Positions 3,877-24,078 of a stretch of DNA of 64,000 nt are shown piece by piece. Every line of letters starts with the position of its first letter. The stretch's first letter is position 1. The position numbers and the translations under genes are program-made. The DNA comes from Promethearchaeota archaeon. GTDB lineage: Archaea > Asgardarchaeota > Lokiarchaeia > Sigyniarchaeales > SOKP01. The stretch is taken from assembly GCA_048938025.1 (NCBI GenBank), contig JBHLMP010000006.1, positions 1-64,000 of the forward strand, given 5' to 3'. The notes under the pieces were generated by a model. That model saw nothing but the letters and a program-made list of their open reading frames with translations. It did no database searches and had not been told where the DNA came from.

Positions 3877-4454
3877 CCTGTGATAGCTATACGATAGTAA
3901 TTACCGGCTTAGGGGGACAAGGTTTAATAAGCTTGCTGAAAATTCTGGGAAATGCCTTAGTTACTAAAGGATATAAAGTAATAACTTCTGAAACACATGG
4001 TCTTAGTCAGAGAGGTGGTAAAGTGACATGTTTCCTTCGTTTCGGGGATATGTTGAATGCTCCAATTCCAATGATTGGATCAGCAGATATGATCATTGCT
4101 ACTGAAAAAAGCTGCATTTTGGATGTGTTAAAATACGCAAAACAGAATATGAGTACAAAATTAATCATATCCTCTTATGAGAAAAGGATAATAAATGAAA
4201 AATACCCTTCTGAAAATTATATATTAAAAGTCCTTAATGAAAATTCGGATAACATATACTTTATACCAGATACCAATATTGCGGAAAAGCTTATGAAAAA
4301 TCTAAAAGCTACTAACATAGTTATATTAGGCTATATTTTAAGATTTTTACCGTTAAGTGATAAAGATATTGAGAACTCTTTAAAGCAACAATTTATAGGA
4401 AAAGATTTAGAAATAAATCTAAAAGCTCTTAAAGAAGGACAAAATATAAAATAG
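3873..4454 (+). CDS. iorB: Indolepyruvate:ferredoxin oxidoreductase beta subunit
   Basis: GLGGQG, SETHGLSQRGG; ATGA overlap with iorA. Confidence 0.92.
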   Translation: MTCDSYTIVITGLGGQGLISLLKILGNALVTKGYKVITSETHGLSQRGGKVTCFLRFGDMLNAPIPMIGSADMIIATEKSCILDVLKYAKQNMSTKLIISSYEKRIINEKYPSENYILKVLNENSDNIYFIPDTNIAEKLMKNLKATNIVILGYILRFLPLSDKDIENSLKQQFIGKDLEINLKALKEGQNIK

Positions 4455-4479
4455 AGTTATATTATCTAGACCTATTATC

Positions 4480-6117
4480 TTATCCCAACCTTTTTTTTTC
4501 GAGTTCGATTAATTCTCGCCGTAAAATTTTACCTGAACCTGATTTAGGGATATCATCCACAAATTCAACCTCTCGTATCTTCTTATAAGCGGAAATCCTT
4601 TCAGCAACCCAATCCATAATTTCCTGGTCAGTTACTTTACCCTTAGACGCTGGTTTTAAAATTATAAAAGCTTTCGGTATTTGCCCGATATCTAGTTCTT
4701 TAGATGGTTTTCCAATAACAGCAGCATCAAATACATGTGGATTTTTAAATAGTAAATCCTCAAGTTCAGCAGGTGCAATAGCCCACCCTTTGTATTTTAT
4801 CATTTCCTTGATACGATCAACAAGATGCTCGTATTCATCATCGTCAATGTACGCCATATCACCTGTTCTCAACCATTTTTCACCAGTTTTAGGGTCAATC
4901 CAAAAGGCATTTTTAGTAGCTTCAGGTCGATTCCAATAGCCTTTCATAACTTGAGGCCCTTTAATAACTAGTTCTCCAACTTGCCCCCGTTCAGGGAGCT
5001 CCTCACCAGTCTCTAAATCAATAATTTTATGAAAAGTATCGGGAATAAGAGTACCTTGAGATTCCATTTTAGGGCGATACATAGGATTTACAGCAACAAC
5101 TGGAGAGGCTTCAGTTAATCCCCAACCATGTTGGACGGTCACTTCTTCAGCATTACACTTTTCTTTTGCTAATTTTTCAAATCTATCAAGAAGTTCAAGA
5201 GGTATCGGTGCAGCGCCATTGTTAAAAATTTTAAGGTTTGGCCAATCATATCCTTTTACATTTGGGTCTTCAAGATGTCGAACTACTGCTAGAAATATTG
5301 GAGGTACACATAGGCTATATGTAACTTGATATTTTTCAATGAGCTCACAGAATTGTTTCACCTCAAATCGTGGTGTTACTACTTGTGCTGCGCCTAACCA
5401 AATAGCTTGGTTCATACACACATTTAATCCATAGATATGATAAAGAGGAAGTACAGTCATAGCGATATCTAATTCGCTTAAATCGAAAAGTGGGCATACT
5501 TGGATAACATTTGACACCATATTGTAATGTGTAAGCATGGTTCCTTTTGGCAGACCTGTTGTTCCACTTGTATATACTAATGTCGCGAGATCTTCTTTTG
5601 AATTAAAGTTGTATTCAGGAGGGTCTGGACTGGTTTTAATCATTAATTCTGACCATCCAATAGTTCCTTTTGGCGTTTCTGGTTTCTTTTCATTTTTTTC
5701 TATTACTATAATATTTTTAAGATTTGTTTTATCCTTGATTGCTGCAACGTTAGGGTATTCTGGTTGTGAAACTATGATTGTCTCTACTCCAGCATCATTT
5801 GCTTCATATTCTACCTCAGATTCTTTGAATAATGGGTTCATCGGAACTAGAATTGCCCCTGCTTTTTCTAACCCAAAAAAAGAAATTTCCCACTGGATTG
5901 TGTTTGGTCCATATAAGGCGATTCTATCCCCTTTTCTCACACCTAAATCTTTTAATGCTGTCGCAAATTTGTCAACTTGTTCTTTAAATAGTTTGAAACT
6001 CATTTCTTCAGGGTAGAGAAAAGCATGTCTGTCTGGAAATCTTTCTGCTGTATCTTCCAAAATTTCATAAATGGGGATTTCAGGATAATAAAGATGACCC
6101 CTTTTAAATTTAACCAC
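4480..6117 (-). CDS. Long-chain fatty acid-CoA ligase (AMP-binding enzyme)
   Basis: YTSGTTGLPKG, GWGLTEASP, LRTGD, DRIKEMIK, PKSGSGKILRR; probable start GTG at 6117 behind AGGTGA SD (ORF track start 6126). Confidence 0.93.
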   Translation of the reverse strand: MVKFKRGHLYYPEIPIYEILEDTAERFPDRHAFLYPEEMSFKLFKEQVDKFATALKDLGVRKGDRIALYGPNTIQWEISFFGLEKAGAILVPMNPLFKESEVEYEANDAGVETIIVSQPEYPNVAAIKDKTNLKNIIVIEKNEKKPETPKGTIGWSELMIKTSPDPPEYNFNSKEDLATLVYTSGTTGLPKGTMLTHYNMVSNVIQVCPLFDLSELDIAMTVLPLYHIYGLNVCMNQAIWLGAAQVVTPRFEVKQFCELIEKYQVTYSLCVPPIFLAVVRHLEDPNVKGYDWPNLKIFNNGAAPIPLELLDRFEKLAKEKCNAEEVTVQHGWGLTEASPVVAVNPMYRPKMESQGTLIPDTFHKIIDLETGEELPERGQVGELVIKGPQVMKGYWNRPEATKNAFWIDPKTGEKWLRTGDMAYIDDDEYEHLVDRIKEMIKYKGWAIAPAELEDLLFKNPHVFDAAVIGKPSKELDIGQIPKAFIILKPASKGKVTDQEIMDWVAERISAYKKIREVEFVDDIPKSGSGKILRRELIELEKKRLG

Positions 6118-23389: not shown

Positions 23390-23533
23390 ATTTCCTTCAC
23401 AATTAAATTATCAGCTTTTTAAATTAAATAAAGAAATTCTACATATAAAATTAAATTCGAACATGTTTTATCTTTTCACATTTATAATATATTATATGTG
23501 TATTAATCAAATTCGAAAATCATTTGATATTTT

Positions 23534-23644
23534 ATGAAGCGAGAAAAAAAAATTGCTATCGTTATCATCGTAACAACAATAATTCTGTTTGTATCTATTC
23601 TTTTGTTTATTATGAGTACTTCTATTAGTCCGTGAACGCCTTAA
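23534..23644 (+). CDS. Unannotated single-TM micropeptide: 33 aa ending at TGA 23633-23635, or 36 aa if TGA is recoded as Sec
   Basis: MKREKKIAIVIIVTTIILFVSILLFIMSTSISP-TGA-ACG-CCT-TAA; basic N-terminus followed by a hydrophobic helix. Confidence 0.55.
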
Positions 23645-23673
23645 AATGGGAATTAATTTATTTAAAAAAGTGA

Positions 23674-23708
23674 ATGACTCTTGTAAAAAATGTTAGTTAC
23701 AAGAAGAC
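23674..23708 (+). other. SECIS-like hairpin (alternatively an inverted-repeat operator)
   Basis: ATGA-C-TCTTGTAA-AAAATGTTAG-TTACAAGA-A-GA: perfect 8-bp stem, A-rich loop, GA/GA core. Confidence 0.4.
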
Positions 23709-23766
23709 AACCTTGTGCAGGTTTTAAATTGTTTTAATAAATAAATTTATTTAAGATGATTTTAAT

Positions 23767-24078
23767 ATGAATGAAACATTTTCCGAGCGAGTTAAACAAC
23801 TAATTAAACAAATTCCAAATGGAAAGGTTTCAACATATGGTCAAATTGCTGCTCGTGCTGGAAATCCGAGAGCTGCACGACAAGTAGCATGGATATTGCA
23901 TTCTTGTTCGAAGAAAGATAATTTACCATGGCATAGGGTTATTAATAGTAAGGGAAGGATTTCATTGCCTTATGATGGTGGTTATCAAATGCAGAAAAAG
24001 CTATTAGAGCTAGAGGGGATTGTTTTTAATGAAGATGATATTATTGATCTTGAAATTTATATTTGTCGAGTAGAGTAA
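23767..24078 (+). CDS. Alkyltransferase-like (ATL, YbaZ/Atl1) protein, MGMT family
   Basis: IPNGKVSTYGQIA, AARQVAW, LPWHRVIN (Trp replaces the catalytic Cys). Confidence 0.92.
   Translation: MNETFSERVKQLIKQIPNGKVSTYGQIAARAGNPRAARQVAWILHSCSKKDNLPWHRVINSKGRISLPYDGGYQMQKKLLELEGIVFNEDDIIDLEIYICRVE

Follow-up and report, generated by a model that had tools for sequence, protein, structure and literature searches.

A candidate membrane selenopeptide gene with a Lokiarchaeota-type SECIS element in a Promethearchaeota archaeon

SelK and SelS of eukaryotes are single-pass membrane selenoproteins with selenocysteine (Sec) 2-3 residues from the C-terminus. SelK has, to our knowledge, no Cys partner. 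The sections of the selenoproteome survey used here report no eukaryote-specific selenoprotein family in Asgard archaea (PMC11227280). The published Asgard selenoproteome comprises seven families, all soluble or enzyme-linked, and rests largely on homology to known selenoproteins and on Sec/Cys pairs, according to the parts of two reports on which this account draws (PMC11227280, PMC13188914). A SECIS-first search yielded no new family in the portion of the study cited here (PMC4989117). Literature searches for a small or membrane-bound selenoprotein of Asgard archaea yielded none; further candidates may be listed in the supplements of PMC4989117 and PMC11227280. Lokiarchaeota and other Asgard archaea have a type I, eukaryote-like SECIS, the lokiSECIS (Mariotti et al. 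2016, PMC4989117; Huang et al. 2024, PMC11227280). In the relevant passages of PMC4989117, AUGA is located directly 5′ of a 9-bp stem and GA (or AA) directly 3′ of it, and a fixed length of 11 nt is reported for the apical loop.

The window, that is the whole stretch of 64,000 nucleotides that was analysed, contains a micro-ORF that runs into an in-frame TGA and is followed by a hairpin (Table 1). The first-pass annotation had described an ORF ending in TGA, one Thr and one Pro codon and TAA. Read with TGA as Sec (U), it indeed yields the claimed peptide of 36 residues. The hydrophobic stretch (residues 7-27) has a mean Kyte-Doolittle hydropathy of 3.2. STSISP leads from the helix directly to U, and the peptide contains no Cys. 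It matched no Pfam family at E-values up to 0.01 and no NCBIfam family either.

Table 1. Features of the micro-ORF locus and its borders; positions are those of the window.
Feature	Position	Strand	Remarks
A/T-rich TATA-like box	23481..23496	+	about 40-50 nt upstream of the micro-ORF start; read from the sequence and alignment A4
Left copy of the imperfect 8-bp direct repeat, ATCAAATT	23506..23513	+	module border; alignment A4
Shine-Dalgarno-like TTGATA	23524..23529	+	5-10 nt before ATG; GTGATA or TTGATA at the same place in orthologues
Micro-ORF, 33 sense codons	23534..23632	+	MKREKK (basic N-terminus), hydrophobic helix of 21 residues, STSISP
In-frame TGA, proposed Sec codon 34	23633..23635	+	TGA in 5/5 syntenic copies
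Tail ACG CCT and TAA after TGA	23636..23644	+	TAA at 23642-23644; tail unconserved
LokiSECIS core	23674..23707	+	ATGA, 9-position stem (first position C.A), 10-nt loop AAAATGTTAG, 3′ stem arm, GA
Second small hairpin (AACCU..AGGUU)	23709..23723	+	directly 3′ of the SECIS; T-runs after it; aligned to the modelled side hairpin
Right copy of the imperfect direct repeat, ATAAATTT	23741..23748	+	end of the module missing in G012; alignment A4
ATL-like gene	23767..24078	+	DNA_binding_1 only (PF01035, 95.6 bits), PWHRV motif; ends with TAA, no in-frame TGA

With SelK and SelS the predicted peptide shares one transmembrane (TM) helix near the N-terminus and a Sec next to the C-terminus. The comparison made in the first-pass annotation stands as an analogy of architecture. 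It does not extend to homology: there is no sequence similarity and no Pfam or NCBIfam match, the window peptide is much shorter, and its Sec would be located outside the cell rather than in the cytosol. A second parallel in form is VhuU, a very small selenopeptide of archaea whose Sec is close to the C-terminus and whose gene is directly followed by a SECIS; this genome has a copy at C54 with that arrangement. VhuU differs in being a soluble fragment of the [NiFe] hydrogenase, with a conserved Cys/Sec motif for metal binding. It has no membrane helix and no sequence relation to the window peptide.

The hairpin carries the marks of a lokiSECIS: ATGA, a stem of nine positions, an A-rich loop start, a loop-final AG, GA and a location in the 3′ UTR shortly past the stop. 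ATGA (23674-23677) is located on the strand of the ORF, 29 nt past TAA and 38 nt past TGA. A perfect 8-bp helix is formed by 23679-23686 with 23697-23704, followed by A and by GA at 23706-23707. The AUGA/GA core, the 8-bp helix and the A-rich loop were all located as claimed before, about 30 nt past TAA. Consensus features beyond the earlier description are the loop-final AG, the second hairpin at 23709-23723 and the C...A as first stem position. The stem consists of eight Watson-Crick pairs and this C.A. Pairing at the first stem position is also lacking in eight of the 18 distinct true SECIS compared, and C.A occurs there in the VhuD SECIS of G022. A side hairpin also forms part of the structure modelled for alignment A1 (19 true SECIS), and two of its three modelled pairs show compensatory changes.

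Covariance models provided the strongest separation from other sites. Model R1 was built from 19 SECIS, and model R2 from nine SECIS of VhuD, HdrA, VhuU and PrxL only, with the window element outside the training set. R2 assigned 53.8 bits to the window element (E 1.3e-8 for the 3.5-Mb genome). It was the best non-training match, followed by matches of 32.2 and 32.0 bits. R1 gave 59.9 bits and rank 6 among nine strong matches in the genome, with the next match at 31 bits; the second-best match within the window reached 13.8 bits. In the modelled structure, 92.5% of the cells were paired and compensatory changes were present in 11 of 12 pairs, and none of 500 shuffles equalled it. Applied to 33 loci, R2 detected a SECIS in 31; the exceptions were the locus of G012, which lacks the module, and one unrelated match. 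The SECIS-like hairpin of the first-pass annotation was recognised as SECIS by a model of known families only, and by these scores the hairpin at 23674-23707 is a genuine SECIS of the Lokiarchaeota type and no chance repeat.

Less specific methods did not single out the element. The minimum free energy of -11.9 kcal/mol (z = -0.34) was reached or surpassed by 74 of 200 shuffles. Rfam yielded no match at gathering scores across the whole window and evidently has no model that catches this SECIS type. The sole Rfam match around the locus, a snoRNA with an E-value of 9.9, was rejected as chance. A loose pattern scan gave 132 matches genome-wide, mostly noise; among 13 matches examined, four were inside ordinary coding sequences and lacked the loop-final AG.

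The window element differs from described lokiSECIS elements in loop length and spacing. The loop begins with AAAA and ends with AG, with a run of A6 instead of A7, and has 10 nt, versus 11 nt in all 19 SECIS of alignment A1. The shorter form was kept in all five orthologous copies, without an indel in contigs from four runs of four studies. It is also present after VhuD in G062 and in the metagenome locus L067, where R2 scored 60.9 and 70.8 bits. Judged by this recurrence, the 10-nt loop is a natural variant rather than a defect. The 29 nt between stop and SECIS compare with 0-13 nt for the other eight SECIS of the genome. The distance of 38 nt from UGA to SECIS is about half of the shortest other distance seen in the lineage (about 75-80 nt).

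The genome encodes the Sec machinery that the first-pass annotation had named as a prerequisite, including tRNA-Sec, SepSecS (385.7 bits), EFsec (243.7 bits; cut-off 242.25) and two selD genes (190.7 and 164.6 bits) with one in-frame TGA each. The tRNA-Sec has a UCA anticodon, an intron and a 31-nt insertion in the T-loop. The insertion explains its Rfam score of 34.6 bits, below the gathering score of 47. ARAGORN called no tRNA-Sec in the genome. A tRNA-Sec with such an insertion is described for Lokiarchaeota in the part of PMC4989117 considered here. For PSTK, a weak partial match to the eukaryotic model TIGR03575 was obtained (48.4 bits; cut-off 382). PF09106, the winged helix of bacterial SelB, had no match; it was the wrong probe and among the controls positive only in E. 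coli.

Syntenic orthologues were present in three other species genomes (G056, G043 and G063) and in the metagenome locus L068. The module occupies an equivalent site in all copies, flanked by the putative promoter on the cupin side and by ATL. TGA stands at the end of the helix in all five copies, including the window, and never TAA or TAG; codon 34 is also invariant in contigs from four runs of four studies. The TGA is followed on the same strand by the SECIS at 38, 38, 33, 37 and 37 nt. Conservation of TGA and of the hairpin, on which the earlier reading depended, was found for both: TGA at codon 34 in 5/5 syntenic copies, and a SECIS of 88-100% identity, 33-38 nt downstream. The SECIS of G056 is identical to that of the window in 34 of 34 positions, and those of G043 and G063 in 88-91%. 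Pairwise identities, computed without the near-identical window-L068 pair, were 0.88-1.00 in the SECIS, 0.79-0.91 in the coding DNA of ATL and 0.43-0.76 in the spacer that precedes this gene; the ORF had 0.54-0.64 in the pairs without G056. Substitutions in the SECIS keep or improve pairing. The micro-ORF peptide is under purifying selection: between window and G056 there are 10 synonymous and nine non-synonymous changes (pS 0.43, pN 0.12, pN/pS 0.27; binomial P 0.0055).

The sequence behind the TGA behaves differently from the SECIS. The tails comprise 2, 6, 4, 0 and 2 codons across the five copies, and neither length nor sequence is conserved; conserved coding sequence after the UGA was absent among the five. 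None of these copies of the window's type has a Cys codon at the UGA position. Population variants in runs X5 and X6 were 23636 A>G and 23643 A>C, the latter changing TAA to TCA, and in a close population variant the frame continues six residues past U. Among the runs found to contain the stretch, none was of RNA. The predicted ending P-U-T-P holds in the window strain and is limited to it because the residues after U are not conserved.

The borders of the module were defined by comparison with genomes that lack it. G012 has a single copy of the direct repeat and is without everything up to the right copy (alignment A4). In a contig of run X9, position 23513 is joined straight to the sequence just upstream of ATL. 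The same A/T-rich box is present upstream of the ATL gene in G012 and may act as a promoter. The Shine-Dalgarno-like TTGATA may serve in initiation. Among 54 genomes of the genus, the module was detected in just four. It is dispensable, given this distribution and its absence from G012, the closest syntenic relative, and from a strain in run X9. The ATL-like gene is a neighbour outside the selenoprotein unit. It starts 59 nt after the SECIS in the window, and the position of the module relative to it is the same in all five copies.

An ORF that ends in UGA and is followed by a genuine SECIS, with both kept in related genomes, probably encodes an uncatalogued tiny selenoprotein. We regard it as reasonably likely that the locus is a real selenopeptide gene, small and self-contained. 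Its mRNA would probably be started by the A/T-rich box, which precedes the micro-ORF by about 45 nt. The 33 codons for a single-pass membrane peptide would run into the UGA. Following the positive-inside rule, the basic N-terminus would reside inside the cell and the C-terminus outside. The kink-turn SECIS 38 nt downstream may recruit, together with the side hairpin, EFsec, Sec-tRNA-Sec and a SECIS-binding factor. Reading of the UGA as Sec would place a selenol at or next to the C-terminus on the outer membrane face, and translation would end two codons later. The peptide has no Cys partner, which favours intermolecular or metal/chalcogen chemistry. An intermolecular diselenide or selenylsulfide, or metal/chalcogen binding at the membrane surface, would be most likely.

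Several observations stand against a selenopeptide. The 0-6 unconserved codons and the strain-level change from TAA to a sense codon would look alike in the case of a plain stop and drifting non-coding DNA. The missing Cys partner, the missing acidic linker, the 38-nt spacing, the 10-nt loop and the position 29 nt past the stop count in the same direction, as do a dispensable module and a folding energy no better than that of shuffles. A real membrane micropeptide with TGA as ordinary stop is an unlikely explanation. The SECIS would then be inherited from a longer selenoprotein ancestor and either be undecayed or be kept for another purpose, such as RNA stability, 3′-end formation or as a site for a kink-turn protein. 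Because T-runs come after the second hairpin, the element could also have a part in 3′-end formation. The variable tail, the alternation of TAA and TCA at one tail codon among strains, the lack of Cys and the dispensability of the module all agree with an ordinary stop. SECIS relics do exist in the genome: the element at C67:1477-1542 follows a multi-TM ORF without TGA. This sole relic seen is decayed, with seven of nine stem pairs and 31-32 bits, whereas R2 assigns 52-57 bits to the element of the window and to those of the four orthologues. The SECIS copies are 88-100% identical against 43-76% in neighbouring non-coding DNA, and their changes maintain or improve the stem. The TGA itself is retained in 5/5 copies, even though mutation of its G to A, giving TAA, would be neutral in a genome with 29% G+C, where TAA ends 72% of the long ORFs and TGA only 14.6% of the ORFs of at least 150 aa. 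We infer Sec insertion at the UGA.

The selenopeptide gene may belong to a larger group. The SECIS of the window led to a set of small membrane-anchored UGA-ORFs in related genomes; at least 22 small TM ORFs that combine an in-frame TGA with a SECIS were counted in such genomes and in contigs. The ORFs of the set run from a basic N-terminus through one TM helix to an acidic D/G linker and a single TGA, which supplies the U of a C-x(1-4)-U or U-x-C motif. A tail follows, and then a SECIS of the window's type with its side hairpin. The ORFs comprise about 35-110 codons. Among the 10 members of alignment A2, only C and U are invariant outside the helix. A Sec/Cys pair is present in the C-x-U set, where TGT of G051 is aligned to the TGA of the others. 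The frames stay open for 21-54 codons past TGA, with pN/pS of 0.42-0.95 downstream versus 0.24-1.53 upstream of it. Ten members gave only noise in Pfam and NCBIfam, with no SelK/SelG or SelS family at E-values up to 10.

The window type resembles this set in its basic N-terminus, its only TM helix with one TGA beyond it, and its lokiSECIS. It differs by the lack of the acidic D/G linker, the Cys partner and a tail of 20-50 codons, and by its site upstream of ATL instead of behind a tRNA gene. An HMM of alignment A2 had no match in G000. An hhalign comparison of the window peptide with the profile of the set gave a non-significant probability of 31% over 23 aligned columns, which cover the TM helix only. 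The window gene looks like a minimal relative of this uncatalogued set of small membrane-anchored selenoproteins. A broader proposal is quite unlikely: that the window gene and the C-x-U and U-x-C ORFs form one superfamily of Asgard membrane-anchored selenoproteins, a counterpart and possibly a forerunner of SelK and SelS. Its minimal form would be a peptide of 34-40 residues with a lone C-terminal selenol at the membrane surface, acting through an intermolecular diselenide or as a metal/chalcogen handler.

The position of the module between the putative promoter and the ATL start would allow a function as selenium-sensing leader, in which termination or Sec insertion at the UGA would affect how the ATL-DUF3795 genes further downstream, which share the promoter, are transcribed or translated. 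The 59-nt distance from the SECIS to ATL, the same position relative to ATL in all five copies and G012, where this promoter would drive ATL directly, fit such a role. The purifying selection on the peptide as a membrane helix does not, as a pure leader needs none. Members of the wider set carry the same SECIS type in other contexts, e.g., downstream of a tRNA gene, and no alternative pairings that form an attenuator were seen on folding. We know of no link of ATL or DUF3795 to selenium. Together with these counterarguments, the leader function is very unlikely. The first-pass annotation had named an operator for ATL as an alternative role of the inverted repeat. That the repeat binds a protein as such an operator, or is palindromic by chance, and that the ORF is spurious, is extremely improbable: despite the location of the repeat 60 nt upstream of ATL, a folding energy no better than shuffles and the lack of an Rfam match, this reading is contradicted by covariance scores at least 20 bits above every non-SECIS site in 3.5 Mb, by the strand-specific presence of ATGA, loop AG, GA and side hairpin, by nearly identical elements after VhuD genes and by the coding substitution pattern of the ORF.

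If this gene and the wider set of UGA-ORFs are real selenoprotein genes, Asgard archaea would have single-pass membrane selenoproteins, a kind so far thought eukaryotic. The archaeal selenoproteome would be larger than listed and include selenols at the membrane surface. LokiSECIS elements would tolerate a 10-nt loop and a UGA at a distance of only 38 nt, which would constrain models of the archaeal SECIS-binding factor. ORFs of this kind are cut at the UGA or missed altogether by gene callers. The SECIS-first look at this genome revealed three UGA-ORFs of no known family: the one in the window and those at C72 and C77, the latter two having no match in Pfam or NCBIfam.

The sequence matches the layout described by the first-pass annotation, a short ORF with an in-frame TGA followed by a hairpin (ORF listing, translation). 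The peptide consists of MKREKK, a 21-residue hydrophobic stretch (mean hydropathy 3.2) and STSISP. Folding energy did not set the hairpin region apart (z = -0.34; 74 of 200 shuffles were at least as stable), and Rfam gave no match for it. Evidence for the hairpin thus has to come from comparison with true SECIS elements.

Coordinates of the micro-ORF module (micro-ORF, TGA and hairpin) and of other loci in the text
Feature	Contig or locus	Position	Strand	Remark
Module edge ATCAAATT	window (C66)	23506-23513		start of gap in G012
Micro-ORF start ATG	window	23534	+	opens 33 sense codons
In-frame TGA of micro-ORF	window	23633-23635	+	
TAA, preceded by ACG CCT	window	23642-23644	+	3' of micro-ORF TGA
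Hairpin ATGACTCTTGTAAAAAATGTTAGTTACAAGAAGA	window	23674-23707	+	29 bases 3' of TAA
Second hairpin	window	23709-23723		
Module edge ATAAATTT	window	23741-23748		end of gap in G012
Stop codon inside ATGA of SECIS	C54	16830-16895		also loci L017, L019, L092, L094
Weak SECIS-like element	C67	1477-1542		
Sec locus	C48	21260-26818		SepSecS, tRNA-Sec and EFsec within 6 kb
ORF with one in-frame TGA	C72 (L040:1134-1535)	about 81934-82335		..SSST-U-TLAFCG..
ORF with two adjacent in-frame TGA	C77 (L042:210-677:-)	about 4318-4828	-	..HAD-U-U-ADV..
Wider-set loci	L017, L018, L019, L025, L026, L028, L030, L031, L033, L034, L084-L090, L092-L095, L066, L071-L073			

A loose pattern scan of the genome gave 132 matches, of which 13 were examined. 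Eight have a common layout and follow a UGA-containing ORF, 0-13 nt 3' of its stop. ATGA precedes a stem of nine positions and an 11-nt loop with A's at its start and G at its end (AG in seven of eight); GA or AA comes next. The layout is that of the Lokiarchaeota-type SECIS (lokiSECIS) as published in the available text of PMC4989117. The ORFs are three HdrA-VhuD pairs, one HdrA, one VhuU, one PrxL and two without a known family. Four matches lie within ordinary coding DNA and lack the loop-final AG. The thirteenth is the hairpin of the window. Directly 3' of the GA, all true elements seen in this lineage have a small second hairpin, about ACC..GCAA..GGU, whichever gene precedes, and it shows compensatory changes. 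In an alignment of 19 true elements, pairing in stem and second hairpin amounts to 92.5%, and 11 of 12 pairs show compensatory changes, a level reached by none of 500 shuffles. Several selenoprotein genes use the TGA within the ATGA of their own SECIS as stop codon. The weak element on contig C67 (31-32 bits, seven of nine stem pairs) follows a multi-TM ORF without TGA. As a probable decaying relic, it is a useful yardstick for the look of a non-functional SECIS in this genome.

Covariance models supported the SECIS reading of the hairpin. Model R1, trained on 19 elements with the window's hairpin left out, assigned it 59.9 bits, the sixth of nine strong matches at 52.7-71.8 bits. The next match has 31 bits and the remainder <20. 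With filters off, the second-best site within the window has 13.8 bits. Because R1 might lean on close relatives of the hairpin, R2 was trained on nine elements of VhuD, HdrA, VhuU and PrxL only. With 53.8 bits, the hairpin is the top non-training match of R2 in the genome, followed by two at 32.2 and 32.0 bits. Having C.A as the first stem position is nothing unusual: of 18 distinct true elements, eight have no pair in that place, and a VhuD SECIS in genome G022 also has C.A. The hairpin departs from the consensus only in its loop, which is one A short (10 nt vs 11).

The 10-nt loop is a natural SECIS form. It is present in all five copies of the module. A pattern search with <=2 mismatches in 135 genomes of the family matched five, four of them with micro-ORF copies. 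The fifth match follows a VhuD gene with the usual in-frame TGA (G062). A second VhuD gene with a 10-nt loop is located on metagenome contig L067; L065 and L070, which are closely related to it, have loops of 11 nt. R2 scored these VhuD elements with 60.9 (G062) and 70.8 bits (L067).

Orthologues were sought by DNA searches in the genus (54 genomes), 40 relatives and metagenome contigs. The module is located at the same site, flanked by the cupin-side promoter and the ATL gene, in three other species (G056, G043 and G063) and on metagenome contig L068. All five copies have a basic N-terminus and one hydrophobic helix, directly followed by TGA in the contexts SISP-U (three copies), LFST-U and HGIG-U. 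The annotation had looked to homologues for conservation of TGA and hairpin. Both are conserved: the TGA in five of five syntenic copies, the SECIS with 88-100% identity. For comparison, identities are 54-64% for the ORF, 43-76% for the spacer before ATL and 79-91% for ATL coding DNA, leaving out the near-identical window-L068 pair and, for the ORF range, pairs with G056. The tail after the TGA has 2, 6, 4, 0 and 2 codons, and the TGA-SECIS spacing is 38, 38, 33, 37 and 37 nt. ORF differences between window and G056 comprise 10 synonymous and 9 non-synonymous changes (pS 0.43, pN 0.12, ratio 0.27). Under neutrality, so high a synonymous count has a probability of 0.0055. The 34-nt SECIS has zero changes in this pair. 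Contigs from sequencing runs (four runs, four studies) have an unchanged TGA and SECIS and no A-run indel; they differ by a single synonymous ORF change and by two tail changes, one of them TAA to TCA. TGA terminates 14.6% and TAA 72% of the ORFs >=150 aa in this genome.

Comparative sequence evidence identifies the hairpin as a genuine, selected SECIS. It can serve no UGA other than the one in the micro-ORF, and the micro-ORF is likewise under selection as coding sequence. Among neighbouring plus-strand genes in the window, no other gene for the SECIS to serve was found. The genes for ATL and a DUF3795 protein (3', plus strand) have a TAA stop and no in-frame TGA, and a minus-strand cupin gene sits between the SECIS and the nearest 5' plus-strand gene. 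The micro-ORF probably encodes a single-pass membrane selenopeptide of 34-40 residues, in which Sec is C-terminal or adjacent to the C-terminus. The main rival, a UGA that is a plain stop, is rather unlikely: it would account for the short, drifting tail, but leaves the retention of SECIS and TGA unexplained. Methanococcus sets no strict limit on the UGA-SECIS distance; the distances tested, according to the available text, were not as short as 38 nt (PMC9622424). A selenium-sensing leader for ATL is compatible with the other readings and has a slim chance. The alternative raised in the annotation, an inverted repeat acting as operator for ATL, is contradicted.

The closest syntenic relative, G012 (flanks 88% identical), lacks about 235 bp including the whole micro-ORF and SECIS. 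The module edges form an imperfect 8-bp direct repeat in the window (23506-23748), and G012 kept a single motif copy. A strain co-occurring in sequencing run X9 has the same junction. For G012, it is simpler to assume that recombination between the short repeats removed the module, because three more distant genomes carry it at this site. The module is dispensable, as it is absent in G012 and the X9 strain. The A/T-rich box 5' of the micro-ORF in the window precedes ATL in G012.

The genome (3.52 Mb, 29% G+C, 96.7% complete; the window is part of contig C66) encodes the Sec machinery that the annotation presupposed: two selD, SepSecS, EFsec and tRNA-Sec. The selD genes are in tandem, with one in-frame TGA in each. 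SepSecS has 385.7 bits and EFsec 243.7 bits, barely above the cut-off. The tRNA-Sec gene adjoins SepSecS and has a UCA anticodon. Due to a 31-nt insertion in the T-loop, it is below the Rfam gathering score and was missed by ARAGORN. Exactly such an intron was reported for Lokiarchaeota tRNA-Sec (PMC4989117, available text). PSTK is represented by a weak match to the eukaryotic model, no more.

SECIS similarity revealed further small UGA-ORFs elsewhere in the genus. Behind a basic N-terminus and a single TM helix, they have an acidic D/G/S linker and a Cys 1-4 residues before the in-frame TGA. A 21-54-codon tail and a lokiSECIS follow, with the stop often contained in its ATGA. Outside helix and start, only Cys and U are invariant in a 10-member alignment. 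The HMM of this alignment matched 22 of 154 genomes of the order and 15 of 53 in the genus, with zero matches in the genome of the window. Some matches, spread over three genera, are of a second type in which U-x-C follows a Gly-rich linker; a U-x4-C form is present on two metagenome contigs. The wider set spans at least four genera of the order, with acidic or Gly-rich linkers. G051 (L086) has TGT in place of TGA and kept a SECIS-like element whose loop measures 12 nt. Of 33 loci scored with R2, 31 gave a SECIS; the G012 locus, which lacks the module, and an unrelated match in G037 gave none. Stops are 7.3% of all trinucleotides, and the chance of an open frame over 21-41 codons is 0.20 to 0.04 per lineage. 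The pN/pS test downstream of the TGA is weak because ratios are only 0.42-0.95. Pfam and NCBIfam have no family for these proteins. Seven Asgard selenoprotein families are described (PMC11227280); a 2026 review adds none (PMC13188914) and a SECIS-first search found no further family (PMC4989117), as far as the available portions of these papers extend. In the available literature on Asgard selenoproteins, supplements aside, no description of the wider-set ORFs was found.

Micro-ORF and wider set are alike in architecture and SECIS type. In contrast, the micro-ORF has no linker, Cys or tail, and comparing profiles gave no significant result (31%, confined to the helix). For these reasons it is held apart: by analogy, it is treated as working like the wider-set genes, while membership is not demonstrated.

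The two ORFs without a known family that precede a lokiSECIS in this genome are located on contigs C72 and C77. The ORF on contig C72 ends 4 nt 5' of a perfect element (52.7 bits with R1), has nothing above noise in Pfam and is a possible further unlisted selenoprotein. The ORF on contig C77 has no match in Pfam; its lokiSECIS scores 55.5 bits with R1 and 32 bits with R2.
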